Shown here: piece after piece, positions 33,809-49,800 of the stretch
Numbering within the stretch: position 1 is the stretch's first letter
Layout of the letters: each line of letters starts with the position of its first letter
Source: a virus
Taxonomy: Duplodnaviria; Caudoviricetes
DNA: 64,000 bases
Direction: 5' to 3' (one strand)
Virus record (IMG/VR): IMGVR_UViG_3300022723_000184
Location: 1-64,000 of that record
Notes under the pieces: generated by a model
What the model was told of the DNA's origin: nothing
The model's database searches: none
Seen by the model: the letters and a program-made list of their open reading frames with translations, nothing else
Position numbers and translations under genes: made by a program

Positions 33809-36800
33809 GTGACGACCATCTCGAACAACCTGTTCGACCAGGACCCTGCCAACTCGATCCTCCCGGATCCGAGTTTTCCACAGCCCGTCCCCAAACCGGC
33901 TCCTCAGGAGGAAGAGCCGGAAATGCGGCGTTTTGGCGACCCGATTGCCACACGCCGCGCCATTTACGACAGGGTTTTCCAGGCGGCCCAGGAGATGGAG
34001 CCGGTCGTGGGCCAGACCCACACGCTGCGACTGTCCAACCTCAACTGGGCGGATCCCGAGGAATACTCCAAGCGGAAGCGGAAGGAAGCGATCCTCTCCG
34101 GCCAGACGCTTGGTCGCCGTCTTCGCGGGACCTGGGAGTTGGTCAACAACGAGACCGGTGAGGTCCAGGACCGCACGGACAAGACGGTCGCTCGCATCCC
34201 TTACGTGACGGGCAGCGGGACGTTCGTCCACCGGGGCAACGAGTACGCGATCAAGAACCAGCAGCGGCTGCGGGCCGGCGTGTTTACCCGGGTCAAGGAC
34301 AACGGGGAGGTCGAGGCCCACGCCAACATCCTCCGCGGCGGCCCGAGCCACCGGTACTTCCTGGACCCGGCCAAGGGTGTGTTCTACATGCGCCTCGGCC
34401 AGGCCAAGATCCCAATGATGCCCCTGCTCAAGGCGATGGGTGCGACCGACGCCCAGCTGCGTGAGGCTTGGGGCCCGGAGATCCACGCCGCCAACTACGG
34501 GGCCAACGACGCCAGCGCCCTGGTCAAGCTCAAGGAGAAGATCCTCAAGGACCGCTCGGCGAAGCAGGAGGAACTGGTCTCGGCCTTCAACCAGATGGAG
34601 CTGGACCCGGAGGTCACGCAGCGGACGCTGGGCCAGCCGTACGAGAACATGGGCCTCGACACGCTGCTCGACACGTCCAAGAAGCTGCTGGCGGTCAGCC
34701 GGCAGGAGGCAGACGTCGACGACCGCGACCACCTGGCCTACCAGACGTTCCTGGGTCCCGAGGATCTGCTCGCCGAGCGGATCCGCAAGGACCGGGGCGG
34801 CGTCCGCCGCAAGCTGCTGTGGAAGCTGGCCCGAGAGGGCAACCTGAGCAAGTTGCCGGCCGCCGTGCTCCAGGACCAGGTGGACAGCGCCCTGCTCGAA
34901 TCGGGCCTGGGTCAGGCCCTCGAAGAGATCAACCCGGCCGAGGTCTTCGACAAGCAGACCCAGATCAGCCGGATGGGTGAGGGCGGCATCCCGTCGCTGC
35001 AGGCGGTGCCCGACGAGGCCCGCGGCGTACAGCCCAGCCACATGGGCTTCATGGACCCGCTGCGCACCCCCGAGTGTTACGACGAGCAGACGGAGGTCAT
35101 GACGAAGCAGGGATGGAAACCGTGGCCTTCCGTTACCGAGAGTGATGAGTTCGCTTGTCTGGTGGACGGTCGTCTGGAGTTTCATCTCGCAGACAAACTG
35201 GTGTCGTACCGGTACGTCGGGCAGATGTGTGGCGCGAAGACAGCCTTGGTCGACTACCTGGTCACGCCGGACCACCGCATGTACGTTCGCCGCGGTTACG
35301 ATACACCTCACTGGCGGATCGAGACGGCGAACGAGACGCATGAGGCTCATGTTCGGATTTTGAAATGCGGCGGCCACTCGCCTTACGTCGGGATGGCGTT
35401 CGATCCCGGTCTACCTGTCTTTGAGTCGCGGTCGAACAACAGCAAGGCGATCGACCTGGCGACCACGGACCCGTGCGACTGGGCGGAGTTTGTCGGGTGG
35501 TACCTGTCGGAAGGCAACTTGGCTGTTTCCGAGTCTAGACAGTCTTATAAGGTCATGATCACTCAGAGCCCGGAAGCGAACCCGGAGAACCATACCCGGA
35601 TCCGGGACTTGTTGGATCGTCTACCGTTCGACTGGTCTTTCTGTAACCACGAGAAAGCATTTGTCGTGAGCCGCCGCCACCTTTATGAGTGGGCCAAACC
35701 GCTAGGAAAGTGTGACGACAAATTCATTCCCGCTCGTTGCTTCGATTGGCCCGAGGAAGCTCGTCGATCGTTGTTGGAGGGTCTGTTACTGGGCGACGGC
35801 CGTAAGGCAGTTAAAGGCGGCAGAGTGGGCCGGCCCACACAGTACTGTTCGACTAGCCGCAGGCTGGCTTATGACGTTCAGAGGCTGTTGTTCACCCTTG
35901 GTGTCTCGTCCCGGGTGGTATTCGAGCCGGACGAACGGGAGGATCACTATCTCGGATGCTGGGTCGTGCATATCCACGCGAGAACGCAGCGGCGAGTTGG
36001 TCGTGCTCATGCAGCTAAAGAAAGCGATTTCCACCTGGAGAGTTACGACGGTCATGTCTACTGCGCTTCTGTTCCTGGTGGGCTTTTGTACGTGCGTCGC
36101 AACGAGAGCTGCGGCATTTGGTGCGGCAACAGCTTCCGGGTCGGTGTCGACGTGCACCTGGCCCGCAATGCCCGCAAGGGGCGTGACGGCAAGCTCTACG
36201 CCCAGTTCCGTGACGCCCGGTCGGGCAAGGACGTGTGGCGCACGCCGCAGGACGTCGCCGACCTGGCCGTGGCGTTCCCCGGCTCCATGAAGTCGGAGGC
36301 CAGGCGGGTGCCGGCCATGAAGAACGGCCGGATCCGGTGGGTGCCCAAGGAGAAGGTTGACCTGGTGCTCAGCACCTTCGAGAACGCCTTCAGCCCGTTG
36401 GGCAACATGGTCCCGCTCAAGAGCATGGTGAAGGGCCAGCGGGTGGCGATGGCCAGCCGGATGAGCGTAACGGGTGACGCCTGGGTTGTAGTGCTGCGAA
36501 AATCTGGTGACGCCTATTACGGCCCGATACGAGATTACGTGTGGAGGAAAGGCGACAAGTCTCCGTCTATCGATAAGGTTACGCACCGGCTGGTGTGGAA
36601 ACCGGTGCGAGCTAAGCTAGTACACCGGAACACGAAACGTCTTATGCGGGTGACGGTTGATAGCGGTAGGAGCTTTGTTGCTACTGAGGATCACAGTTGC
36701 GTTACGCTAGGTAAATCTGGACGTCTTGAAAAGATTAAAACCGGTGATTTATCTAAAGGCCTACCCGTTCCTTATGCCGCGACGCTTGATTGCCCCGAGA

Positions 36801-39800
36801 CGTACCAGAAAACGTGGAATGTGCCGAACGGAAACAAGCACAACGCCCATCCGGGTGTCGCGTTTCCGTTAACACGGGATGTAGGCTGGTTTTTGGGGTT
36901 GTACGTTGCCGAGGGTTACGGGGTCGGCAAAGATGCTCGCGCTGTGGCGCTTGCTAACATCTCTCCCGAAGTGCAGACCAGGGTTTGCCGGTTTATGGCT
37001 GACATTGGTTTGTGCGTGAAGCCGTCTTCCGGCAGCGACGGGGTGAACGACCGGGTTGTTATCAACTGGCTGCAGTTATACAGAAAGTTGCGAGAGGATT
37101 TCGGGGACGGGGCTTATAACAAAAGGCTTCCCGCCTGGGTGCATTTTTCGCCGAAAGCGTTCCGGGAAGGTCTGTTGTCGGGATACATGGCTGGCGATGG
37201 GATCGTATCGAAACCAGTAGCCCGTTCAACAACAACCGGCGGCGGCAGCCGCAGCCTGGACCTGGTCAACGGGTTGACGCTTCTTTGTGCGTCACTCGGT
37301 ATTTCAACGTCTGTGTCCTCGCCCTGGGTTAATACCGGCCCGGGAGGATCCCGGGTGCAACAACACAAGTTCACGATACGTAAAGAGCACCAACATCTAC
37401 TCCCCGTGATCGGCCACCCGGAAAAAGACAAAAAAATGCAACGGTCGTCGTGGTCGGGCAAGCGGTCTTACGACTGGATACCGATTTTCGACGACCTTAG
37501 ACCTATGTTTAATCGGCGAACGCAGCGTCGCGACAACCGCCGCCGGCGGCTGGATAACCGTTATATGGGTCGCTTGGATCGCCGCGACGTAATCGACTTA
37601 TTTGGGGATGACGCGGAGTGGGCTACCAGGGGTTGGTCGTCGTCGTCTGTCTGGTGGGATCGGGTGAAGCGGGTGGACGAAGTCAGTTCGGACCATGAAT
37701 TCGTTTATGACCTTGACATGGAAGACAACGTGTTCCTGGCCAACGGCGTGTTTGTGCACAATACAACGCAGGCCCTGCCCGTGGCTAACCCCGAGGCGCC
37801 ACTCGTCCAGTCGGCGGTTCCCGGCAGCGGCGGGGCAATCAGCTTCGAGGACGAGTACGGATCGCACATGGGTGCGGTGCGTGCCGATCAGCCCGGTCGC
37901 GTGGTGGCGGTCACCGACGACGAGATCACCGTGCAGTACGCCGACAACAGCCGGGCGAACATCGAGCTGTACAACAACCATCCGTACAACCGTAAGAGCG
38001 TGACCGGTGACACCGAGATTCTGATCCGCAGAAGGGCGGAATCTGGGCGGTCGAGGCAAGGGCTTTACATCTGGCGAGGCCCGATTCGCGAGTATCAGTG
38101 GCGAGACGACGACTACGTCCTTTCGGTGTGTCCGAAAACGAAGCAGTCTGCGTGGAAGAAGGTCATCGCGAAAACGGCTCATCCCAACGACAAACGTCTG
38201 TTGCGGGTGAAGACAGCGTCCGGCCGTCATGTTGTGGTGACCGAAGACCACAGCCTGGTGACGATGGGTAGCGATGGAACACTCGTGCCTATCTATCCGG
38301 ACGATTGCCAGGTCGGCAAGACACGGTTGCCTGTGGCTAAGATCCCCGAAATGGTCTCGTCGAAGACGTATCCGGGCAAGTCTCGTAACGACGGTCGCGT
38401 GGTCGGCCTATACCTTGCGGAAGGGCACTGCCCGCCCAGTCAGCCAAACCTGGTGACGATTTCGGTTGAGCCGGACGATCGGGCAGAGACGGTACTGGCT
38501 TTGTTGAGAACCGTTTCGGAGGGCTACGAGCCGTTCCGAAACGGCGGTACCGTTTGTATGACGGCGCCGAAACTGGTCAAGAGGTTGGTGAAACAGTTCG
38601 GACACCGGTCACACAACAAGAAGATCCCGTCGCGATTCCTTCGGTACCCAGCCGAGTTCCGAGAAGGACTGGTCGAAGGGTACATGGGTGGCGACGGTTG
38701 CTTTTGGAAGGACGGAAACGGCGGGACTAATTTGGAGGCGACCAGTGTTTCGCGGGAGCTTCGGGACAACCTCGTCGACCTGCTGCTGTCGTTGGACGTG
38801 TTCACGACGCTGAAGACGTCGCCAAGGAAAAAGTACAAGGATGCGTGGCGGGACGGGTATCGCTTCCGCGTCTTGTCCGGGGAGCTACACAAGCTGCCCC
38901 GATGGTTCGTGTACGACGATCGAGAGGAACGGTTGAACGAATCCATCGATTCGCAGTACCGAGCTTCCGTGTACGAGATGGTTCCGGTCCCCGATAAAGA
39001 AGCCAGGACGCTCGTCTATGCCGGCTTCGACAAGACGCCGCTGCAAGGAAAAGTTGCCAAGCACAGGCTGGCCGGATCCAAAAGCGTGTTCGGCAAGTGG
39101 GGTGTCTCTGACGTCATGTGGGATGAGATCGTGGCGATCGAATCGGCGGACCACGAAGAGGAGGTCTACGACCTTTCCGTGCAAGACTCGGAGATGTTCG
39201 CTGTTTGTCACGGCCTGGTCGTACACAACACATACATCCATCAGACGCCGACGGTCCGGCCTGGCCAGTCCTTCAAGGCCGGAGACCTGCTTGCCCGGTC
39301 GAACTACACCAACGACCAGGGCGCGACGGCCCTGGGCGTCAACGCCCGCGTTGCTTACGTGCCGTGGGGCGGCAAGAACTTTGAAGACGCCATCGTGATC
39401 TCGGACTCCATGGCCAAGCGGTTGAGTTCCGAGCACATGTACCAGCACGACCTTGAGATCAGCGCCCGGACCCGCACTGGCAAGAACACCTACCTCTCGC
39501 TGTTCCCCGGCAAGTACGACAAGAAGACCCTGGAAAACATGGACGCTGACGGCGTCGTCAAACCAGGCACAGTCGTGCAACACGGGGATCCGCTAATCCT
39601 GGCTGCCGAAGAGCGGAGCCGGGCGCTGAACAAGGTTCACAAGAAGCGTCAGCCTGGCTTCCAAGACAACAGCATCACGTGGAAGCATCACGACGAAGGC
39701 GTGGTGACCGATGTGGTGAAGACCAAGAACGGCCCGGTCGTCTTGGTCAAGGGCCGGCAGGAGATGAAGGTCGGCGACAAGATGTGTTACGACCCGGAGA

Positions 39801-40831
39801 CTAGCCTACTCACGCGGCAAGGTTGGAAGCCTGTTGCGGAGGTTACGCTCGACGACGAGTTGGCGACGCTGAACCCGGAAACGGAAGAACTGGAGTACCA
39901 CAAACCAACTCACGTGCACTCGTTTGCTCACACGGGGGAGATGTACTACCTGAATACCAAGCACCTCAACATGCTGGTGACGCCGGAGCATCGCTTGTGG
40001 GTTGCTCGTCCGGGCCAGACCTACGGCGAGGTGACGGCTAAAGACTTCTACGAGTCGAAGGGCGAATGGCAGTTCAAGAAAGACTGCAAGTGGGTTGGCG
40101 AAGAACGCTTGTTGATGGAGTTCGAGCCGTACATCGCGAGGAACAGTCGAGAGCAAGTCCTGGAATCTGTACCCATGGACATTTGGCTCAGGTTCATCGG
40201 GTATTACCTGTCAGAGGGTCGAACTTGTCGTACTTCGAGCGGCGGGTATCAGGTGCAGATCAGCCAGTTCCGAACGTCTTCGGTTTGGGAGGACATTCAC
40301 GACACGCTGGTCGAGCTTGGTCTGCGTTTCTCGTACCGAGAAAACGAAAATAGGTTTGAGATCAACTCCAAGTGGTTGTACGGGGTGTTGCTGCCGTTGG
40401 GCAGCGATGCGTACTCGAAGCGAGTGCCGGAATACGTACAAGAACTGTGCTCTCGCCAGATCTCCGTCTTGTTCGATTCTTACATGGAAGGAGACGGACA
40501 TAAGGGGGCGTGCTGGGAGTTTGGAACGTCGAGCGAGCAGTTGGCTTTCGACCTTCAAGTGTTGTGTTTGAAGTTGGGCTGGTGTGTCAAGTTGAAGCCC
40601 GTCGACCGTGAAGACAACCTTCAAAAGAACCCTCACTGGCGGGGCCGAGTTAATCGTTCTCATCTGCGGCCTTGGTGGAAGAAAGGGCAGGCAAAGACCT
40701 ACGCGTCCAACGAAGAGAAGATGGTGCAGTACGACGGCGAGGTCTACTGCGTGACAGTTCCCAATCACATCGTTTATTGCAAGAGGGAGGACAAAACGTA
40801 CTGGTCGCTGAACAGCGGCCGGTACGGCTAG
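33809..40831 (+). CDS. rpoB: Multi-subunit RNA polymerase beta-like subunit (N-terminal/main part) with 4 inteins
   Basis: After removing inteins: DPLRTPE|SFRVG, QRVAMASRM|TTQALP, PYNRK|TYIHQTP, GKNFEDAIVIS, KVGDKM|SGRYG. Ends at TAG inside the GRxG(N/D)KG motif. Confidence 0.92.
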   Translation: MTTISNNLFDQDPANSILPDPSFPQPVPKPAPQEEEPEMRRFGDPIATRRAIYDRVFQAAQEMEPVVGQTHTLRLSNLNWADPEEYSKRKRKEAILSGQTLGRRLRGTWELVNNETGEVQDRTDKTVARIPYVTGSGTFVHRGNEYAIKNQQRLRAGVFTRVKDNGEVEAHANILRGGPSHRYFLDPAKGVFYMRLGQAKIPMMPLLKAMGATDAQLREAWGPEIHAANYGANDASALVKLKEKILKDRSAKQEELVSAFNQMELDPEVTQRTLGQPYENMGLDTLLDTSKKLLAVSRQEADVDDRDHLAYQTFLGPEDLLAERIRKDRGGVRRKLLWKLAREGNLSKLPAAVLQDQVDSALLESGLGQALEEINPAEVFDKQTQISRMGEGGIPSLQAVPDEARGVQPSHMGFMDPLRTPECYDEQTEVMTKQGWKPWPSVTESDEFACLVDGRLEFHLADKLVSYRYVGQMCGAKTALVDYLVTPDHRMYVRRGYDTPHWRIETANETHEAHVRILKCGGHSPYVGMAFDPGLPVFESRSNNSKAIDLATTDPCDWAEFVGWYLSEGNLAVSESRQSYKVMITQSPEANPENHTRIRDLLDRLPFDWSFCNHEKAFVVSRRHLYEWAKPLGKCDDKFIPARCFDWPEEARRSLLEGLLLGDGRKAVKGGRVGRPTQYCSTSRRLAYDVQRLLFTLGVSSRVVFEPDEREDHYLGCWVVHIHARTQRRVGRAHAAKESDFHLESYDGHVYCASVPGGLLYVRRNESCGIWCGNSFRVGVDVHLARNARKGRDGKLYAQFRDARSGKDVWRTPQDVADLAVAFPGSMKSEARRVPAMKNGRIRWVPKEKVDLVLSTFENAFSPLGNMVPLKSMVKGQRVAMASRMSVTGDAWVVVLRKSGDAYYGPIRDYVWRKGDKSPSIDKVTHRLVWKPVRAKLVHRNTKRLMRVTVDSGRSFVATEDHSCVTLGKSGRLEKIKTGDLSKGLPVPYAATLDCPETYQKTWNVPNGNKHNAHPGVAFPLTRDVGWFLGLYVAEGYGVGKDARAVALANISPEVQTRVCRFMADIGLCVKPSSGSDGVNDRVVINWLQLYRKLREDFGDGAYNKRLPAWVHFSPKAFREGLLSGYMAGDGIVSKPVARSTTTGGGSRSLDLVNGLTLLCASLGISTSVSSPWVNTGPGGSRVQQHKFTIRKEHQHLLPVIGHPEKDKKMQRSSWSGKRSYDWIPIFDDLRPMFNRRTQRRDNRRRRLDNRYMGRLDRRDVIDLFGDDAEWATRGWSSSSVWWDRVKRVDEVSSDHEFVYDLDMEDNVFLANGVFVHNTTQALPVANPEAPLVQSAVPGSGGAISFEDEYGSHMGAVRADQPGRVVAVTDDEITVQYADNSRANIELYNNHPYNRKSVTGDTEILIRRRAESGRSRQGLYIWRGPIREYQWRDDDYVLSVCPKTKQSAWKKVIAKTAHPNDKRLLRVKTASGRHVVVTEDHSLVTMGSDGTLVPIYPDDCQVGKTRLPVAKIPEMVSSKTYPGKSRNDGRVVGLYLAEGHCPPSQPNLVTISVEPDDRAETVLALLRTVSEGYEPFRNGGTVCMTAPKLVKRLVKQFGHRSHNKKIPSRFLRYPAEFREGLVEGYMGGDGCFWKDGNGGTNLEATSVSRELRDNLVDLLLSLDVFTTLKTSPRKKYKDAWRDGYRFRVLSGELHKLPRWFVYDDREERLNESIDSQYRASVYEMVPVPDKEARTLVYAGFDKTPLQGKVAKHRLAGSKSVFGKWGVSDVMWDEIVAIESADHEEEVYDLSVQDSEMFAVCHGLVVHNTYIHQTPTVRPGQSFKAGDLLARSNYTNDQGATALGVNARVAYVPWGGKNFEDAIVISDSMAKRLSSEHMYQHDLEISARTRTGKNTYLSLFPGKYDKKTLENMDADGVVKPGTVVQHGDPLILAAEERSRALNKVHKKRQPGFQDNSITWKHHDEGVVTDVVKTKNGPVVLVKGRQEMKVGDKMCYDPETSLLTRQGWKPVAEVTLDDELATLNPETEELEYHKPTHVHSFAHTGEMYYLNTKHLNMLVTPEHRLWVARPGQTYGEVTAKDFYESKGEWQFKKDCKWVGEERLLMEFEPYIARNSREQVLESVPMDIWLRFIGYYLSEGRTCRTSSGGYQVQISQFRTSSVWEDIHDTLVELGLRFSYRENENRFEINSKWLYGVLLPLGSDAYSKRVPEYVQELCSRQISVLFDSYMEGDGHKGACWEFGTSSEQLAFDLQVLCLKLGWCVKLKPVDREDNLQKNPHWRGRVNRSHLRPWWKKGQAKTYASNEEKMVQYDGEVYCVTVPNHIVYCKREDKTYWSLNSGRYG
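35075..36130 (+). mobile_element. Intein beta-1 (LAGLIDADG, 352 aa)
   Basis: CYDEQTEV...TPDH; LSEG and LLGDG endonuclease motifs; ends GN before Ser. Confidence 0.9.
36464..37762 (+). mobile_element. Intein beta-2 (LAGLIDADG, 433 aa)
   Basis: SVTGDAW...TEDH; YVAEG and MAGDG; ends VHN before Thr. Confidence 0.9.
37997..39229 (+). mobile_element. Intein beta-3 (LAGLIDADG, 411 aa)
   Basis: SVTGDTE...TEDH; YLAEG and MGGDG; ends VHN before Thr. Confidence 0.9.
39785..40813 (+). mobile_element. Intein beta-4 (LAGLIDADG, 343 aa)
   Basis: CYDPETS...TPEH; YLSEG and MEGDG; ends LN before Ser. Confidence 0.9.
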
Positions 40832-40833
40832 GT
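40826..40833 (+). other. Out-of-frame junction inside the beta conserved motif (candidate ribosomal hop site)
   Basis: GGC TAG in frame 2; GGT GAT AAA GGA in frame 1 starting at the G of TAG. Confidence 0.7.
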
Positions 40834-43800
40834 GATAAAGGAGTTGTTGCCGCGATCATCCCCGACAACCAGATGCCCCACGACAAAGCGGGCAGCCCGT
40901 ACGAGGTGCTGCTCAACCCCCTTGGGGTCATCAGCCGCTGTTACGACGAGCAGACTGAGTTCTTGACGGATCGAGGCTGGGTGTTTGGTCGTGACGTTCA
41001 TCAAGACGACCAGTTCGTTTGCTACCACGTCTGGACCGAGAACCTGTACACAATGCCACAGTTGGAGAAGTTTCACGTTGCGGACTACACAGGCAAAATG
41101 CTGAAGTTTGAGAACAAGCTCATGGACTTCTGCGTCACGCCGAATCACCGCATGTGGGCTGCTTGTGGATACCCCGGCGCGCCATGGCAGGAAGTGACGG
41201 CCGAGCGAATTTTCGACCGAAACGGGTGGAAGGTGCCTGTGGCCGGAAACCCGGTACCCGGTGAAGATCGGGACTTCGTGTTGCCGCAGATCGAGCGCCA
41301 CGTGAAGGATACGCAGTCGTCTGTAGAAGAAATTGTGATTGAAGCCGGGGACTGGGCCGAGTTCCTTGGTTGGTACGTGGCCGAAGGTAACGCCGACGAG
41401 AAAGTCCACATCTCTCAGAGTATCGAGGCTAATCCGGAAAACTGTAGCCGGATCGAGGAGCTGTTGAATCGCCTTCCGTTCGCCTGGAACTACAACGCGA
41501 AGAACACGCAGTTCCACATCACATCGAAGCGTCTTTGTGAGCACCTGAAACCGTTGGGGCTGTGTGATGAGAAGCACGTCCCGGACTGGGTCTTCTCGCA
41601 GAGCCCAGAGACACGGCAGCGGTTCCTAGATAGCTATCTGGCCGGTGACGGCGACAAAGATCAGACGAACAGAGACCATGCGTATTGGGGCGCCGGTACA
41701 ACGTCAAAACAGTTGGCGCAGGACCTCCAGCGACTGCTTATCTACCAAGGCTATTCGGCGAATACGTCGAAGCAGCCTTCGGGTATGTGGCGGGTCGGTA
41801 TTCACGCTAAACGGCACCGAATCTTGGAGAAACAGAACTGGGCCGAAGTTGACTACGACGGTAAGATCTATTGCCCGACGGTGCCAACCGGGTACATCGT
41901 GACTCGCCGCAACGGAAAGGTTTTGATCGCGGGCAACACCAACCCGGCCCAGATGGTGGAGGCCGCGTTGGGCAAGCTCGCCAAGCACCGCGGCCAGCCG
42001 ATCAAGGTCGAGGACTTCGACGAGAACATCGAGGACATGACTGAGTGGGCCAGGGATCAGCTGCGTAAGGCGGGGCTCTCGGACACCGAGGACATTGTCG
42101 ACCCTAGCACCGACAAGAAGATCAAGGGGATCAACACCGGCAACCGCTTCTTCATGAAGCTGCACCACACGGCGGAATGTTTTGACGATCAAACCGAGGT
42201 ACTTACAAAGCGAGGGTGGGTCTCGTGGGTTGATGCGCGAGACGATGATGAGTTCGCGACGCTTGATGGCGGCGACCTTGTTTATGAGCAGGCCGAGCGG
42301 GTAGTTCGCAGCGAGTACTACGGGCAATTGTGTTGTTTTGAGGGCAGATACCTTGACTATGCCGTTACCCCGAATCACCGACTCTGGTTGAAATCTTATA
42401 ACTGGCAAAAGGAGTGGGGGTTTCGCGAGGCCGGTGAGGTTCATGGGCGGCGGTTCTCTGTGCAACAATTCGGTCCCTCGGCGGCAGGTAACAATCCCGC
42501 AACCACTAAGATCGGCGATGACGACGTGGATTGGGATGATTACGCGGAGCTTGTTGGGTGGTGGGTCACTGAGGGGTACGCCAAGGTTACGCGTCGCCGG
42601 GCCTGCGTGATGATCTATCAAAGTGAATCCGCGAACCCGGAAAAACTTGCTAGGATTGAGGAGCTTGTGGCTCGTTTGCCGTGGCCCTGGCATTATTACA
42701 AAGTAAAAGGCGAGATTTTCGGTGTTGGCATTAGTAGTAGGGCACTTGCTGAGCATTTGAAGCAGTACGGAACACATTCACACAATAAGCGCTTACCGCG
42801 GCATCTCCTTGAGGGAGGATTGACCGGGCGACAGCGACTATTCGCGTCGATGATGGATGGCGACGGCAATCGGCAGACCACGCCGACTGGAAACATGGAA
42901 AGATTCACGACGACCTCTAAGGGGTTGGCAGATGATTTTCAGGAGTTGTGTGTTCGATCCGGATTCGGTGCGGTTATCCGCCCGGTTAAGCCGAGGAAAG
43001 AGACGCATTATTTGCCTGCGTGGACTTGCGGCGTCGCGTTGTCGCGAACAACCGCCCAGATCGACGGTGACCGCAATCTGGGCGGGTTCTCCCTTCGCAT
43101 GTACAAAGGCGTTGTTTATTGCGCAACGATGCGAACGGGGATGCTATATGTTCGGCGTAACGGTAAGCCGATGTGGAGCGGTAACTCCAAAGGACAGGGA
43201 CGTGGATCCGGAGGTTATACGGCTGAGGATGCACCGGCGAAGGGCGGCGAGACGGGCAGCAAGAGAATTGCGCTGCTCGATGTTAACGCCCTCCTCTCCC
43301 ACGGCGCTACAGAGGTTCTTCGGGATGCTTCTGCGATTCGCGGGCAGAAAAACGAAGACTACTGGCTGCAGTTCATGCAGGGCTACACACCTAAGCAGCC
43401 GAAGGTCCCGCTCGTCTACGAGAAGTTCGTCAACGAGCTGAAGGGCGCCGGGATCAACGTGGTGCGTGACGGGACGCAGACCAACATCATGGCGCTGACC
43501 GATGACGACATCGATCAGCTGGCCGGCGACCGCACGATCAAGTCGGGCGAGACCGTCCACTTCGACAAGGACCTCAAGCCGATCCCGGGCGGCCTGTTCG
43601 ACCCGGCGGTGACCGGCGGTCACCACGGTCGGCGGTGGGCCGCGATCAAGCTGGCCGAGCCCATGCCCAACCCGGTGATGGAAGAGCCGATCCGTCGAGT
43701 GCTCGGGCTGACTGGCAAGAAGTTCCAGGACATTATCGCGGGCAAGGACACGCTGCCCCGTTACGGCACCGGGCTGCGGGCGATTTCCGAGGCACTCGAA

Positions 43801-44877
43801 AACATCAACCTCGACCGCGAGATCCTGAGGACGCAGGGCGAGATCAAGAACGGGACGAAGGCGGCACGCGACGCCGCCGTGCGAAGGCTCGGCTACCTGA
43901 AGAGCGCCAAGCGGCTCAACATCCACCCGCGACAGTGGATGCTCAAGAAGGCCCCGGTCCTGCCTCCGCAGTTCCGCCCGGTCAGCGTGATGACCGACAA
44001 AGAGATCCCGCTCGTCGCCGATCCCAACTTCCTCTACAAGGAGTTGATCGAGGCGAACAACAACCTCATCGACATGAAAGGTGCGGTCGGCGATGAAGTG
44101 GGTGACGAGCGGCTGGCGGTCTACAACGCGTTCAAGGCGGTGACAGGGCTCGGCGACCCGATCACGCAGGAGTCGAAAGAGAAGAACGTCCGCGGCATCC
44201 TCAAGAGCGTGTTCGGCTCCAGCCCGAAGTTCGGCACCGCGCAGCGGAAGCTCATCGGGACGACGGTCGATAACGTGGGGCGTGCGGTGATCACGCCGAA
44301 CCCCTCGCTCGACATGGACAGCGTCGGCCTGCCCGAGGACCGGGCGTTCGAGGTGTACAAGCGGTTCCTGGTCCGCCGGCTCAAGCGGAAGGGGATGCCT
44401 GTGGCCCAGGCCATGCGGCACGTCAACGAGAAGTCGAGCTTGGCCCGAGACGTCTTGATTGAGGAGATGGAGCAGCGGCCGGTGATCATCAACCGGGCGC
44501 CCGTCCTCCACCGGTTCGGGATCATGGCCTTCAAGCCTCGCCTGGTGAAGGGCAGCACCCTGCAGGTGAGCCCGCTGGTCGTGAAGGGGTTCAACGCTGA
44601 CTTCGACGGCGACGCCATGAACTACCACGTGCCGACGGACGAGGAGGCCCGCAAAGAGGCTCTCGACCGGATGCTCCCCAGCCGCCAGTTGCTGAGCCCG
44701 TCCGACTTTAAGTCGCCGGTCCACGCTCCGAGCCAGGAGTACGTCGGCGGTCTGTACCACGCCACCGCAAGCAAGAGCGAGCGGCCGGTTCGGACGTTCG
44801 CCAGCCAGAAGGACGCGATCGCCGCGTACAGGCGAGGCGAGATCAGCATCGACGACCAGGTGCAGATCATCGGGTAG
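40831..44877 (+). CDS. rpoC: RNAP beta C-terminal part fused to beta' N-terminal part (catalytic NADFDGD), with 2 inteins; no independent start
   Basis: DKGVV, NPLGVISR|TNPAQ, MKLHHTAE|SK, then GGLFDP, PVLPPQFRP, GRAVITP, NRAPVLHR, FNADFDGD (44593-44613) and PSQE. Confidence 0.92.
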   Translation, partial: GDKGVVAAIIPDNQMPHDKAGSPYEVLLNPLGVISRCYDEQTEFLTDRGWVFGRDVHQDDQFVCYHVWTENLYTMPQLEKFHVADYTGKMLKFENKLMDFCVTPNHRMWAACGYPGAPWQEVTAERIFDRNGWKVPVAGNPVPGEDRDFVLPQIERHVKDTQSSVEEIVIEAGDWAEFLGWYVAEGNADEKVHISQSIEANPENCSRIEELLNRLPFAWNYNAKNTQFHITSKRLCEHLKPLGLCDEKHVPDWVFSQSPETRQRFLDSYLAGDGDKDQTNRDHAYWGAGTTSKQLAQDLQRLLIYQGYSANTSKQPSGMWRVGIHAKRHRILEKQNWAEVDYDGKIYCPTVPTGYIVTRRNGKVLIAGNTNPAQMVEAALGKLAKHRGQPIKVEDFDENIEDMTEWARDQLRKAGLSDTEDIVDPSTDKKIKGINTGNRFFMKLHHTAECFDDQTEVLTKRGWVSWVDARDDDEFATLDGGDLVYEQAERVVRSEYYGQLCCFEGRYLDYAVTPNHRLWLKSYNWQKEWGFREAGEVHGRRFSVQQFGPSAAGNNPATTKIGDDDVDWDDYAELVGWWVTEGYAKVTRRRACVMIYQSESANPEKLARIEELVARLPWPWHYYKVKGEIFGVGISSRALAEHLKQYGTHSHNKRLPRHLLEGGLTGRQRLFASMMDGDGNRQTTPTGNMERFTTTSKGLADDFQELCVRSGFGAVIRPVKPRKETHYLPAWTCGVALSRTTAQIDGDRNLGGFSLRMYKGVVYCATMRTGMLYVRRNGKPMWSGNSKGQGRGSGGYTAEDAPAKGGETGSKRIALLDVNALLSHGATEVLRDASAIRGQKNEDYWLQFMQGYTPKQPKVPLVYEKFVNELKGAGINVVRDGTQTNIMALTDDDIDQLAGDRTIKSGETVHFDKDLKPIPGGLFDPAVTGGHHGRRWAAIKLAEPMPNPVMEEPIRRVLGLTGKKFQDIIAGKDTLPRYGTGLRAISEALENINLDREILRTQGEIKNGTKAARDAAVRRLGYLKSAKRLNIHPRQWMLKKAPVLPPQFRPVSVMTDKEIPLVADPNFLYKELIEANNNLIDMKGAVGDEVGDERLAVYNAFKAVTGLGDPITQESKEKNVRGILKSVFGSSPKFGTAQRKLIGTTVDNVGRAVITPNPSLDMDSVGLPEDRAFEVYKRFLVRRLKRKGMPVAQAMRHVNEKSSLARDVLIEEMEQRPVIINRAPVLHRFGIMAFKPRLVKGSTLQVSPLVVKGFNADFDGDAMNYHVPTDEEARKEALDRMLPSRQLLSPSDFKSPVHAPSQEYVGGLYHATASKSERPVRTFASQKDAIAAYRRGEISIDDQVQIIG
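40939..41937 (+). mobile_element. Intein beta-5 (LAGLIDADG, 333 aa)
   Basis: CYDEQTEF...TPNH; YVAEG and LAGDG; ends GN before Thr. Confidence 0.9.
42178..43185 (+). mobile_element. Intein beta-6 (LAGLIDADG, 336 aa)
   Basis: CFDDQTEV...TPNH; WVTEG and MDGDG; ends GN before Ser. Confidence 0.9.
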
Positions 44878-44880
44878 TGC

Positions 44881-44909
44881 TTCACTCGCCTAAAGTTGTG
44901 AGGTACACT
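44881..44909 (+). promoter_or_regulatory. Possible sigma70-like promoter
   Basis: TTCACT-N17-TACACT, 28 nt before the ATG at 44937. Confidence 0.4.
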
Positions 44910-44936
44910 GACAGGATCACCACGGAAGGGCCCAAC

Positions 44937-45605
44937 ATGAGCAACCACCAGGTCAACCCTCAGCTGCACACCATGGCCATGCAGGCCGTCGCCGGTTACA
45001 TCGGCAAGGTGGCTGCGGAGGAGAAGAAAGCGTTTATCCCGGGCAGCGATCCGGCGATGGGCGGTGGCGGCATGCCCCCTGGCGGGGACCCGATGGCGGC
45101 GGCCGGCGGCGGCATGCCGATGGACCCTGCGATGATGGGTGGCGGCATGCCCATGGACCCCGCGATGATGGGCGGCGCCATGCCCCCGGCTCCCCCTGCG
45201 GCACCTGCTCCGGCGCCCGCCGCGCCCGCCGCGGCCCCCGAGCAGGTCAAGCCCAAGATCGACGTCAACGTCGAGATCATGCAGATCAAGCACATGCTGG
45301 CCCGCCTCGCCGACGCGATGGGCGTCCAGCTCTCGGCCGCCGAGATGGCGACCACTCCCGAGAAGCTCACCGAGATGGCACAGGGAGGCGGCCCTGGTGG
45401 TGCGGTGGGCGGCGGTGATCCTTCGGCGATTCAGCCCCCGCAACCGATCGATCCCATGCAGGCGGCGACGCCCGCTGAGAAAGGCGCGTCGATCCACGAC
45501 CGCACCGGCTTCAACACGCCGGACACCGCGGGCCTCGGCGAGACCGCCAGCCGGGCCTCCGCGATCTTGGCCATCAGGGGGCGGTCGAACGGTAGCGCTG
45601 CGTGA
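44937..45605 (+). CDS. Pro/Met/Gly low-complexity protein with K-x-A motifs
   Basis: GKVAA and EKKAF; repeated GGGMPMDPAMM; PAAP tract. Confidence 0.75.
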   Translation: MSNHQVNPQLHTMAMQAVAGYIGKVAAEEKKAFIPGSDPAMGGGGMPPGGDPMAAAGGGMPMDPAMMGGGMPMDPAMMGGAMPPAPPAAPAPAPAAPAAAPEQVKPKIDVNVEIMQIKHMLARLADAMGVQLSAAEMATTPEKLTEMAQGGGPGGAVGGGDPSAIQPPQPIDPMQAATPAEKGASIHDRTGFNTPDTAGLGETASRASAILAIRGRSNGSAA

Positions 45606-45868
45606 TCGTCGAAATCATCAGCGACGGCAAACCGCTACGCATCCCGGCGAGTCAGTTGGTCGTCTTTGACGACAACGGCACGCCGATTTGCGTTGCGGGC
45701 GAGTACGGGCCGGACGGTGCGTACAAGGTCTCGCACGCGGCCGACGAAGACTTCAACCAAAGCCTGCGTGCCTTCGGGGTTGGAAGGCACCAGGTCGTCA
45801 CAGATTTCCTAGAGCCACCTCCCGTTCCCGGCGGGGCGAGGCCGCTTACAGGACCATCGAAAGGATGA
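45602..45868 (+). CDS. Hypothetical protein
   Basis: GTGA overlap; coherent 88-aa ORF. Confidence 0.7.
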   Translation: MIVEIISDGKPLRIPASQLVVFDDNGTPICVAGEYGPDGAYKVSHAADEDFNQSLRAFGVGRHQVVTDFLEPPPVPGGARPLTGPSKG

Positions 45869-46794
45869 GCGTCATGTCCGATCACCCCAAGAACACGAAC
45901 CACATCTACGGCAGCAACAACAAATCGGTCGTCGACAACCGGCATGGTGACCGAAAGGGCAGACCGGGTCAGCCATTGAAAGCGAACCCGAGTTACCTAA
46001 CGAACAAGGACAACCCGTCGGCCGACAAGTACTACCGCAACCCGACGGAGGGCGGCCAGGAGGTGGCCCCGAACTCCAACGTTTCGACCAGCTCTTACCT
46101 CCACCCGCAGAGCACGGCTCCCCTCTCGCTCACGAACGAAGCGGACATGGGCGGGGTCTTCGACCTGATCCTCGGCCGCCTGCGTTCGGGCCAGGCCAAG
46201 GTGATCGTCCAGGTGACCGACGCCAACCTGGAGCGGCGTCTCGACGCCCGCCTCGACATGGCCCAGGCCCGCCAGCAAATTGACAACCGACAGCGTGCCG
46301 CCGTCCAGATCGGGCGCCCCGCTGCCTTGTCCGCGGCTACCGTGGCCGCCCCGACGCCCACCCCGACCACCGAGCGTCAGGCCGACGACGACCTGGCGTC
46401 CGACATCGACCCGGAGGCCTACGTGAACGGCGAGCTGCCCGAAGACGCGATCGACACCAACGCCTCGGCCGTGGCCGTCATCGAGGGCCCGGAGGCAGGC
46501 ACCGACGAGGGCGAGGACCTGGGCGAGGAGCCCGGGCCCGAGGGCGAGCCCGGCGAACCGCAGGCCTCGGACGGGGACGGCGGGGACGATGACGACGATG
46601 ACGACGACGGCGATGACGGGGACGACGATGACGACGAGGAGGAGGATGACGACGATGGCGAAGAAGAAGCTCCGGAAGGCGAGGAAGACGAAGAGGACGA
46701 GTTCGGCGACGTGCTAGACGACGTCGAAGAAGAACTCGACGACGACCTGGCGGACCTCGACGAAGAGCCCGAGTCTCATCTTCCAAGCCGATGA
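45865..46794 (+). CDS. Protein with very acidic low-complexity C-terminus
   Basis: D/E tract from about 46560 to 46770; ends SHLPSR inside repeat copy 3. Confidence 0.75.
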   Translation: MSVMSDHPKNTNHIYGSNNKSVVDNRHGDRKGRPGQPLKANPSYLTNKDNPSADKYYRNPTEGGQEVAPNSNVSTSSYLHPQSTAPLSLTNEADMGGVFDLILGRLRSGQAKVIVQVTDANLERRLDARLDMAQARQQIDNRQRAAVQIGRPAALSAATVAAPTPTPTTERQADDDLASDIDPEAYVNGELPEDAIDTNASAVAVIEGPEAGTDEGEDLGEEPGPEGEPGEPQASDGDGGDDDDDDDDGDDGDDDDDEEEDDDDGEEEAPEGEEDEEDEFGDVLDDVEEELDDDLADLDEEPESHLPSR

Positions 46795-46840
46795 GCAGGC
46801 ATTGCGCCCGGTCAGTATAACTTCAAAAGTACTTTTTGAA
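46773..46840 (+). repeat. Hairpin/promoter-like element, copy 3, plus AAAAGTACTTTT palindrome
   Basis: GTCTCATCTTCCAAGCCGATGAGCAGGCATTGCGCCCGGTCAGTATAACTTCAAAAGTACTTTTTGAA, directly upstream of the beta'-C gene. Confidence 0.85.
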
Positions 46841-46857
46841 TCGGGGCACGGAGGCCC

Positions 46858-49800
46858 ATGAAGGCGACGGTCGGTCAACTTCTGGTGAACGACGCACTCC
46901 CGGAGGACATGCGGGACTACCAAATGGTCCTCGACAAAAAGGGTGTGCGGAATCTCATGGCCGACCTGGCCCGTAAGCACCCGGAGGATTACCGGGAGGT
47001 CAGCCACAAGCTCTCACAGATCGGTTGGCGTTCGGCCCAGGAATCCGGCGGCTACAGCTTCGGCTTGGAGCACATGCTCAAAAGCAAGACCGGCCGAGAG
47101 ACCCGCCAACGCATCCAGAAAAAGATCAACGAGATCCTCGCCGACGACCGGCTCACCGACGAGCAGCGTGAGCAGCTGATCCTCAAGCACATCGGCAAGG
47201 AACGCGAGGCCATGCAGTCGGGGATCTTCGACGAGGCCCGCGCCGCGAAGAACCCGCTGGCCATGCAGGTGTTGGGCTCGGGCCGCGGCAACCCGATGAA
47301 CCTGTCGAGCCTGTTGGGCTCGGACCTGCTGTACACCGACCAGCGTGACCGGCTGATTCCGATCCCCGTGCTCCGCAGTTACAGCGAGGGCCTGAGCCCC
47401 GCCGAGTACTGGGCCGGGACCTACGGCGCCCGCAAGGGCGTGATGTGTTTGGCTAAAGGAACTCAGGTGCTGATGGCCGATTACACGGACAAGCCGATCG
47501 AGAAGGTGAAACCTGGTGACTGGGTGATGGGATCTGATCGTCAAGGGCGGATGACGCCTGTGAGGGTTATCCGTCGTTACTACAACGGTGTGCAGCCTTG
47601 CTACCGCTACCGATTTCGCAAAAATAGTTGCCGTTTGCCGTCCTCGCATCGAACACTCGTGGCGACCGAAAAGCATAAGGTCCTTGCCACCGTAAAAGCC
47701 GGACGACCCGGTTCAACCTATGCACACCGGTCAATCTACGTCCCGACACCATTACCGCTTGAAGCGGCGCGTCTGCTTAAAAATCCAGTAAAGAATGAAT
47801 ACGTGGCGACGCCGGCGGCCGGGGAGGCGGGCGAGCAGTCCCGAGTGCGAGAACCGTCGGCCTTGTTGTATGGGTTGATGCTCGGCGACGGGTGTATGGC
47901 AGAATCGACCCGTGGGCGGTATTTGTTGTCGTGCAATGACCCGCTCCTTTTGGACGACCTGCGTGAGTACATCTCATTGTTCGACGTGTTTTTGGACAAA
48001 GCAGGCGGTGATAATTACAACTATACGCTGGCGGGCGATGGGGGGGCTGCGGTTGCGGTCGATTTGAAGACGCGTCTCGGCGAGAAATTGGCCCACGATA
48101 AGGAGCTTCCAGAGGGTTGTTTCGCATGGGACGATGTTTCGGTTGGTCAGTTGCTCGGAGGATTGTTTTCCACCGACGGCTCGATTACTGGCCGAAACGG
48201 TAACGCAACAATTAAGTTGACACTTTCTTCCCGGCGTATGGTGGAACAAGTGCAACGACTGTTGGAACTCCGGTTGGGTATATGGTCCGGCGGGCTGATC
48301 TTCACAGCTAAAGAAAAGAAGAAGAACGCAACGCACGACCAATGGGGTTTTGCGGTGTCACACGCTGCGTCGGTTGCCAGGTTTTTCGCGCGGGTCCCCT
48401 TGTACGGCAAGAAGAGGGTTCAGGCGAAGCGTATCGCGGCTACCATGAAACCGGACCACTCAAACGGGTCACCGGGGTTTAAGATCTACGATCGAGAACC
48501 GGCTGGCGAAATTGCTACATATGATTTGGAGGTTGATCACCCAGACCACCTGTTTGTGCTTTCTAGCGGCCTGGTCGTGTCCAACAGCACGAAGTTCGCC
48601 ACCCAGGAGGCGGGCTTCCTCTCTAAGCAGCTCAACCAGATGGGCCACCGCCTGGTGGTCACAGATGAGGACGGGGACGGCGAGCCCGATTCGCTCCGCG
48701 GCCTGCCGGTGGATGTCGACGACCCGGACTCCGCGGGAAGCCTGCTGGCCCACGACGCCGGCGGCTACAAGCGGAATACGGTGATCACGCCCAAGATCCT
48801 GCACAACCTTCGCCGCCAAGGTCTCAAGCGGATACTGGTCCGCAGCCCCACGGTCGGTGGTAGCCCTGAGGGTGGTATCTACAGCCGTGACGCCGGCGTC
48901 CGCGAGAAGGGCGGGCTCCCGGGTCGCGGCGAGAACATCGGCCTGGCCGCTGCCCAGGCGTTGTGTTTGTCTGGAGGGACGAGAGTCCAGATGGCCAACG
49001 GAGAGGTCAAAGCGGTGGAGGACGTTAAGCCCGGAGATGTAGTTCTGGGATGCAGTGTCGACGGGGTGTTGCGGCCTGTTCCTGTGCTTGACGCTTGTTT
49101 CAGCGGCATTAAATCGTGTGTGAAGGCCCTGTTCAGGCGGGGCACGGGTAAGGCCGCCAAAGACAATCTGCTAGAGCTGGTCGCGACTCCAGAGCACAAA
49201 ATACTCTCCGAGATTGTTGTTCGTTCGGGTAGGGGTTCGGTAAAACGTGTTCCTTACTTCGATCCGGTTGCCGTTCGCCCGCTCGGAACCAAAATCCCAC
49301 ATGAAAAGCGATCAGGGGGCGATCGGTTCTGCGCTAAACTGGCGTCGTCCTTTGACGATACCGGGCTTGGTGTTCAACCTTTAGCTTTTCTTTTGGGTCT
49401 GGTAATCGGTGATGGTTGCTATAGCGGATCAGCGAACTGCGTAGGGTTCAGCTGTTATGATCCGGTGCTCGCCGCTGACGTCGGTGCGTATCTCAAGCCG
49501 TTGAACTTCGAGATCAAAAACAACACGGATAACGAGTACCGCGTTGTCGATACAACGCACCGCCAAGTGAAGCGACGCGAAGATGGTAGCTGGTATCGCA
49601 GCCGTCTTATTGAGCTGCTTCGTGTCGAGGGAATGTTCGGGCAGACGAGCAGTATTAAGACTTTGCCGAAGTCCGTGCACTCGTGGGATAACGCGTCTGT
49701 GGCTGCGCTGATCGCCGGTCTGCTCGTAACGGACGGGTACGTGATATCGACGGGCGGTTTGGGGTTCGGATCGAACTCTAAGTGCTTGCTGGATGGCGTT

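Follow-up and report, generated by a model that had tools for sequence, protein, structure and literature searches.

A probable short stop-hop within the active-site motif of an intein-rich phage RNA polymerase beta gene

Weiss and co-workers are said to have described, in 1987, unprogrammed hops over stop codons in Escherichia coli, of the +5, +6 and 9-nucleotide (nt) kinds. Decoding of this stop-hop kind is rare; efficient natural bypassing has so far been essentially limited to bacteriophage T4 gene 60 and its homologues and to the mitochondrial byps (PMC10732093), with the large terminase gene of the Streptomyces phage phiHau3 as a candidate. For gene 60, a model has been put forward in which pairing of the exiting mRNA drives the forward bypass (bioRxiv 10.1101/2024.12.09.627546). 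For the phiHau3 terminase, inserts of 10 nt, or of 7 nt in a prophage, have been proposed to be bypassed, with a stem-loop and a flanking Shine-Dalgarno (SD) interaction as the 5' stimulators (PMC10732093). The window analyzed here, the first 64 kb (64,000 nt) of the 201,946-bp IMG/VR viral contig IMGVR_UViG_3300022723_000184, comes from an uncultured phage, the contig being an estimated ~90% complete, and carries an RNA polymerase (RNAP) beta gene that is interrupted by a stop codon within the beta active-site motif. Comparative sequence evidence indicates that this sole beta gene is very probably expressed by programmed translational bypassing, in the form of a short stop-hop that would not be homologous to that of T4 gene 60. 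No report of a hop in an RNAP gene or at an intein junction was found in the literature.

Just beyond intein beta-4, positions 40814-40831 read AGC GGC CGG TAC GGC TAG, and from 40831 the other frame reads GGT GAT AAA GGA GTT GTT (Table 1). This is the junction described in a first-pass annotation of the window, SGRYG and TAG followed by GDKGVV in another frame, and the sequence, the open reading frames (ORFs) and the partition of the Pfam match all agree with it: Rpb2_6 profile positions 43-228 fall in the first frame, and positions 230-267 and 269-346 in the second. The second frame stays open to 44877, reading GDKGVV...NPLGVISR and later NADFDGD, the latter carried by an Rpb1 domain 2 downstream of Rpb2_6. 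The same annotation had claimed canonical spacing for the joined frames, GDKM-SGRYG-DKGVV, and this was borne out by 62 continuous relatives.

Those relatives came from a scan of viral contigs with the beta' N-terminal half, in which 79 loci were found, belonging to a large family of ~200-kb uncultured phages; in 62 of the 79 the motif is continuous and reads GDK(L/M)(S/T)GR(Y/F)GDKG(V/I). Gapped alleles were sought by a protein search with intein beta-4 plus its flanking exteins as query, the DNA of the matching proteins then being examined, and further ones were obtained from a metagenome scan (alignment of the intein C-terminus) and a pattern scan. The protein search yielded ten further proteins that end exactly at ...N(S/C)GRYG, and several gapped proteins are each recorded on 2-11 contigs. 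Altogether, 15 distinct gapped lineages were found in IMG/VR, Logan, ENA, NCBI and JGI assemblies, with 53-86% amino acid identity over intein beta-4 and the flanking exteins. With a gap that includes a stop at this very codon in 14 lineages besides that of the window, chance falls far short of accounting for the pattern.

The gapped lineages share a strict layout around a variable gap. Without exception, the last sense codon is GGY, a stop codon follows immediately, as is characteristic of bypassing, and the resumed frame starts with GAY AAR (Asp-Lys); directly 5' of GAY-AAR stands GGN in 13 of the 15. Conservation of the stop and of a Gly landing codon among orthologues had been proposed as a check on the window's junction, and the stop is indeed present in all 15 gapped lineages, but two lineages have AGC and GAT at the landing position. 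The gap, counted from the stop through the landing codon, ranges from 5 to 11 nt, so that the 5-nt hop originally envisaged would apply to the window but not as a fixed length for the family. Every stop codon and every frame relation is represented, six lineages having in-frame gaps (6 or 9 nt) and nine out-of-frame gaps. The identical contigs L003, L004 and L062, from three samples, exemplify the in-frame type, with an in-frame stop and an extra Gly codon in GGC TGA GGT GAT AAA. Apart from the stop codon, the spacer is A/U-rich and contains no G. Removing the gap yields SGRYGDKG in every gapped lineage, with exactly the spacing of the 62 uninterrupted relatives; absence of the gap from homologues and restoration of conserved sequence by its removal are likewise what the bypassing class shows.

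It is least probable, among the explanations considered, that the interruption is an artefact or marks a dead gene, i.e., that an indel arose in assembly or that a defective genome carries an inactivating mutation. The window's 5-nt version occurs on one contig only, but gaps at the same codon occur in 15 lineages from many samples and assemblers, some of the proteins are found on up to 11 contigs, and L003, L004 and L062 are identical across their three samples. An assembly error, which the first-pass annotation had listed as an alternative, is excluded by gaps of 5-11 nt that span all three frames. Both halves of the gene are under selection, the inteins are all intact, and the flanking RNA signals covary, while a dead gene is further contradicted by this being the sole beta gene in the genome. 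For the gapped family as a whole, the artefact reading is already contradicted, and were the true gap length in the window another one, it would still belong to the same series of gaps.

Counted from the resume codon, the open frame spans 675-2021 codons wherever the contig is long enough. For the 35 codons that follow the gap, the mean nonsynonymous divergence (dN) among 11 lineages is 0.31 and the synonymous divergence (dS) is saturated, indicating purifying selection, which also covers the 13 codons ahead of the first Met. In the gapped lineages the interval from the stop to the catalytic Lys contains no conserved in-frame ATG, GTG or TTG, and the later Met is absent in L090. For the window, the claim that there is no in-frame start holds between the stop and the Lys codon, the first ATG being at 40873, although on its upstream side the second frame extends uninterrupted to a TTG at 40672. 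Where the gap is in frame, as in six lineages, the downstream part cannot have an upstream start. These observations bear directly on the idea that beta is split into two polypeptides, the first ending at SGRYG and the second started separately, either by termination-reinitiation tethered by an SD-like tract or on a non-canonical codon, with non-covalent assembly as in phiKZ-like phage polymerases. Gene callers do annotate two genes, an SD-like tract lies upstream and AAAGGAG just downstream, and split subunits are known for jumbo-phage RNAPs (PMC7598289). Such a split nevertheless seems improbable, since a conserved independent start fails on three counts: the missing in-frame start codons, the lack of a later Met in L090, and the in-frame lineages. 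A GTG at the first Val is present in only three lineages, where it directly abuts the SD-like bases; the selected 13 codons ahead of the later Met also speak against separate initiation; and a split would leave unexplained both the duplication of the Gly codon across the gap in 13 of 15 lineages and the end of the hairpin (see below) exactly at the last sense codon. An independent start at CTG 40801, 10 nt after the SD-like tract, was considered as well and set aside; it fits the window's frame only and is inapplicable to the in-frame lineages.

Simple readthrough fails because nine lineages are out of frame, and any single type of frameshift fails because all frames occur. Conventional recoding would therefore have to be lineage-specific, with readthrough where the gap is in frame and otherwise a -1, +1 or +2 frameshift (-1 or +2 in the window). 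The six lineages with in-frame gaps of 6 or 9 nt are in favor of such a scheme, and recoded stop codons are known in large phages. We consider it very unlikely all the same, as a single codon would have to host three different mechanisms, the frame relation not being fixed, and 1-3 extra residues would be placed in a motif that keeps the same spacing throughout 62 relatives. Moreover, there is no slippery heptamer and no 3' structure, the conserved structure being 5'; no suppressor transfer RNA (tRNA) was found, aragorn detecting neither tRNA nor transfer-messenger RNA genes across the 201,946-bp record; and TAA, TAG and TGA all end long ORFs under translation table 11, which also argues against an alternative code. 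The lack of tRNA genes is in itself somewhat unusual for a phage of this size.

By comparison, a hop that leaves the Gly codon preceding the stop and lands on the one preceding Asp-Lys would be the sole event to work in every lineage, and it would always produce the canonical motif. The hop of peptidyl-tRNA-Gly from GGC to GGT over TAG, first suggested from the window alone, is thus supported by the 15 GGY-stop lineages, 13 of them with the Gly match. A matched hop from CGG 40820 to CGG 40825, giving SGR-LGDKG, was rejected as a general mechanism; in L004-type sequences it leads straight into the stop.

The junction is flanked by RNA signals, a hairpin and an SD-like tract, neither of which figured in the first-pass annotation. 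The 13-bp hairpin, predicted unprompted by RNAalifold at -23.8 kcal/mol, has as its last pair one that uses the first G of the take-off codon, and its fold in the window has a z-score of -4.6. Across the 15 lineages 98.5% of the hairpin cells are paired. Compensatory double changes are seen in five pairs, a level matched in none of 500 shuffles, and sliding the partners by 1-3 columns reduces pairing to only 18-54%. In L093 the compensation reaches the protein, with Trp TGG changed to Leu CTG opposite a change of CGG to AGG. The SD-like tract is GGAGG-like in the other gapped lineages; the residues encoded there vary (RED, RGG, RRD, RGD) and the purines are kept.

These signals were compared between 15 gapped rows (13 lineages) and seven continuous alleles in which this site is likewise occupied by an intein. 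Hairpin energies were -18.0 to -22.7 kcal/mol in the gapped and -3.2 to -9.0 kcal/mol in the continuous alleles, and anti-SD duplex energies were -7.8 to -12.1 and -0.9 to -5.9 kcal/mol, respectively. As the seven continuous intein-bearing alleles have the signals weak or absent, the signals track the gap and not the intein as such; conserved mRNA signals, here shared by all gapped alleles, are a further trait of the bypassing class. In addition, synonymous sites in the gapped alleles are frozen from about codon -12 to +3 while dS is saturated elsewhere, with TAC in 11/11, TCG in 10/11, GGC in 11/11, CGG in 10/11 and AAA in 11/11, and conserved residues farther downstream are encoded by three to five codons each. 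At the frozen positions the 62 continuous relatives have GGC in only 12 and CGG in only nine. After the resume codon, 14 of the 15 gapped lineages have AAA and 14 have GGA or GGT, compared with 22 and 15, respectively, of the 62 continuous relatives, which mostly have AAG GGC where gapped alleles have AAA GGA/GGT G. The latter looks SD-like, yet it lies 3' of the landing site. Together, the saturated synonymous divergence, the differing gap lengths and the compensatory changes argue for continued selection on the gapped alleles.

A strong GC-rich hairpin with an A/U-rich stretch is loosely like a terminator-like pause element, and this might suggest that the gap is removed at the RNA level, by a small splicing or editing event or by a polymerase that skips bases after the hairpin. 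On the other hand, precise excision of 5-11 nt has no known mechanism, no conserved structure marks the 3' boundary, and an obligatory stop after a Gly codon together with a repeated Gly codon are hallmarks of a ribosomal event; removal from the RNA is accordingly judged highly improbable.

We observe the gap, its conservation at variable length and frame, selection acting on the two halves and, in gapped alleles specifically, a covarying hairpin and an SD-like tract; from these we infer that ribosomes cross the gap and that the hairpin drives the crossing. In the proposed mechanism, the ribosome would decode ...Ser-Gly-Arg-Tyr-Gly and stall with peptidyl-tRNA-Gly on GGC (40826-28), TAG occupying the A site. 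At this point, GGY being in the P site, the ribosome would still enclose the hairpin's 3' arm of 13 nt, and the 5' arm and loop would already be out. Zipping of the hairpin would then pull mRNA through the exit channel, perhaps aided by pairing of the GGAGG-like tract with the 16S rRNA tail; up to ~13 nt could be drawn in this way, which fits the observed range of 5-11 nt. The peptidyl-tRNA would unpair, the mRNA would slide by 5 nt, and the tRNA would re-pair on GGT (40831-33), so that decoding restarts at GAT. The resume position would be set by the slow stop in the A site, a spacer free of G and the landing codon for Gly. The product would carry the canonical GDKM-SGRYG-DKGVV and, once six inteins are spliced out, would be a single beta-beta'N chain of ~1480 amino acids; the same fusion in intein-free relatives forms proteins of 1474-1489 amino acids. 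Ribosomes that terminate instead would release a truncated beta fragment.

Several points weigh against this proposal. As mentioned, the landing codon is not Gly in two lineages, AGC in one (L098 and L178, two independent contigs) and GAT in the other (L179). Their downstream frames are intact for >830, 2021 and >468 codons, and both codons are one mismatch from Gly. It would follow that a strict codon match is dispensable or that the AGC and GAT alleles work poorly; in the former case, either one mismatch would be tolerated over a short distance, or other features, such as the frozen AAA GGW G, would fix the position. The window's own 5-nt gap form is known from one contig. Gapped alleles may share ancestry, so that lineage counts are not fully independent, and the intein tree is poorly resolved, with gapped and continuous alleles intermingled and at least two changes forced. 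This interspersion is compatible with repeated gain or loss and proves nothing; given the poor resolution, no conclusion was drawn as to a single origin (monophyly) of the gapped alleles. The continuous allele L100 folds to -9 kcal/mol, indicating that the peptide itself gives some hairpin potential. Lastly, the unstimulated short hops of the 1987 work in E. coli are reportedly inefficient, and a high output from the hop proposed here would depend on the inferred stimulators.

Some continuous alleles with the same type of intein deviate from the motif at its Tyr, which is replaced by Val in P0006 and P0015 (SGRVGDKG) and by Leu in P0018 (L094:6390-6480; SGLLGDKS). The SGRVG and SGLLG alleles could be healed former gaps, in view of the CTA or ATA that precedes the landing codon in 9-nt gaps.

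In the window, the RNAP genes (33809-53604) are arranged in the order beta, the C-terminal part of beta fused to the N-terminal half of beta', small ORFs, and beta'-C. The beta (Rpb2_6) gene is single in the whole ~90% complete genome, and its beta-beta'N part holds at least six inteins. LAGLIDADG or Hint inteins are also present in other core genes of relatives, including those for ribonucleotide reductase and beta'-C, and inteins are rife in this uncultured phage family. A search of the genome for a second hop site, covering 223 stop junctions at which a codon matched at two bases occurs no more than 13 nt away and a long open frame follows it, found none that was convincing. The RNAP site ranks first among the 223 by upstream hairpin energy (-22.0 kcal/mol); the runner-up, at G000:C1:131283 (+), reads CTC TAA ... 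CTG and has a hairpin of -18.2 kcal/mol and an ordinary start eight codons in, and is probably a normal gene boundary. As to related phages and hosts, the phage collection contained no DNA match to the window, the best protein matches are only ~30% identical, and no annotated or experimentally tractable relative was found; a pattern scan of genome contigs for host clues gave a single match, a chance one (TGG, not a stop) in a Chromatiaceae metagenome-assembled genome.

Table 1. Positions of the features at the interrupted beta gene (window coordinates), the gap found in each lineage, and further loci in relatives (coordinates of the contig named).
Feature	Location	Strand	Remark
Beta, first reading frame, 2340 codons, four inteins, C-terminus ...WSLN/SGRYG-TAG	33809..40831	+	
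Intein beta-4, 342 amino acids, LAGLIDADG type, between GDKM and SGRYG	39788..40813	+	CYDPETS start and WSLN end beside conserved exteins
SD-like purine tract GGGAGG, 6 nt 5' of hairpin	40785..40790	+	
13-bp hairpin	40797..40826	+	5' arm 40797-40809, loop GAAC 40810-40813, 3' arm 40814-40826
Putative take-off codon GGC, Gly of SGRYG	40826..40828	+	GGY in 15/15 lineages
TAG stop, in the A site at take-off	40829..40831	+	TAA/TAG/TGA right after take-off codon in 15/15
Putatively undecoded 5 nt TAGGT, stop plus landing codon GGT (40831-40833), one-base overlap	40829..40833	+	
Resumed frame from the GAT resume codon: remaining beta (two further inteins) and beta' N-half (NADFDGD), 1347 codons	40834..44877	+	
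AAA GGA G just 3' of resume codon	40837..40843	+	Codon choice frozen in gapped alleles
Gap of 5 nt, TAGGT	Window		
Gap of 6 nt, TGAGGT	L004 group		
Gap of 7 nt, TGAAGGC	L091		
Gap of 7 nt, TGAAGGC	L180		
Gap of 7 nt, TAACGAT	L179		
Gap of 8 nt, TAATAGGT	L089		
Gap of 8 nt, TGAATGGT	L090		
Gap of 8 nt, TGAATGGA	L092		
Gap of 9 nt, TAACTAGGC	L085, L086, L093		
Gap of 9 nt, TAAATAGGT	L088		
Gap of 9 nt, TAACTAAGC	L098 = L178		
Gap of 10 nt, TGAACTAGGC	L087		
Gap of 11 nt, TGACTAAAGGT	L099		
Non-Gly landing, TAA CTA AGC/GAT	L098:2816-2895 and L178		One lineage
Non-Gly landing, TAA C GAT/GAT AAG	L179:7887-7966		
Other intein-bearing core-gene stretches in relatives	L085:1-2644, L087:1-645, L088:14722-16443, L092:13700-14640		

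The position of the gap relative to intein beta-4 raises the possibility, put forward here only tentatively, that the bypass cassette is an intein-addiction device and part of the mobile unit. The intein ends at the Asn codon 40811-13. Within its last 30 nt are the SD-like tract and the hairpin's 5' arm and loop, and the 13 nt that open the C-extein supply the 3' arm, with the gap immediately behind. A precise loss of the intein would then kill the polymerase by taking away signals on which passage across the gap would rely. Being 15 nt away from the homing site, the gap would be co-converted along with the intein, and such an addiction cassette would parallel the mobile cassette of T4 gene 60 and MobA. 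If true, this would be a new route by which a selfish protein-splicing element becomes indispensable, and a second, independent case of a homing element coupled to ribosomal bypassing after T4 MobA/gene 60.

Whatever the role of the intein, the locus is a compact cassette of ~70 nt that has been evolutionarily replicated, and it offers a natural series in which the gap ranges over 5-11 nt, every stop codon is represented and the landing codon is mismatched in two cases, together with a covarying hairpin that abuts the take-off codon. It is thereby a near-ideal natural experiment for the notion that folding of the exiting mRNA pulls the ribosome forward (bioRxiv 10.1101/2024.12.09.627546). Annotation pipelines miss such sites; here gene callers split an essential phage gene. 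Recoding within a polymerase active-site motif, beside an intein, also prompts one to ask whether gaps of this type are made, or taken advantage of, by selfish elements.

Like T4 gene 60, the RNAP site would have a coding gap in the gene of an essential phage enzyme, with a Gly take-off codon, an immediate stop and, in 13 of the 15 lineages, a matched Gly landing codon, and like gene 60, whose homologues occur in the MobA cassette of myovirus topoisomerase genes, it is linked to a selfish homing-endonuclease element. The two differ in most other respects. The gap is 50 nt in gene 60 and 5-11 nt in RNAP beta, too short to contain the A-site or take-off stem-loop of gene 60. The RNAP beta hairpin abuts the take-off codon and is strongly conserved and covarying, whereas the T4 5' stem-loop lies 9 nt upstream and lacks conservation between clades. 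In RNAP beta the SD-like tract precedes the hairpin, and in gene 60 it is located inside the gap; the selfish neighbor is a LAGLIDADG intein in one case and the free-standing MobA in the other; and the host genes are those for RNAP beta and topoisomerase, respectively. No homology between the two cassettes, which were not aligned, is apparent, and by gap size, lack of an internal stem-loop, host gene and neighbor the RNAP site does not appear to belong to the gene 60/MobA family.

The closest architecture is that proposed for the phiHau3 terminase. There, too, conserved motifs in an essential gene of a phage are interrupted by short inserts that break the frame, uninterrupted homologues argue against a simple frameshift, a stem-loop and an SD interaction are proposed as 5' stimulators, and the junction peptide GWG/ND indicates take-off at Gly. 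On the other hand, the slow A-site codon in phiHau3 is a rare UUA, tied to regulation by the host bldA tRNA, rather than a stop codon as in RNAP beta; only three genes of the phiHau3 type are known, compared with 15 diverged lineages with gaps of 5-11 nt for RNAP beta; and the RNAP site is at an intein junction in a different gene. The short hops in E. coli resemble the event proposed here in that the peptidyl-tRNA leaves a codon followed by a stop and pairs again, a few bases farther downstream, with a matching codon. Those hops, however, are low-level events in reporters without stimulatory signals, whereas the putative RNAP beta hop would be fixed in a natural essential gene with conserved signals.

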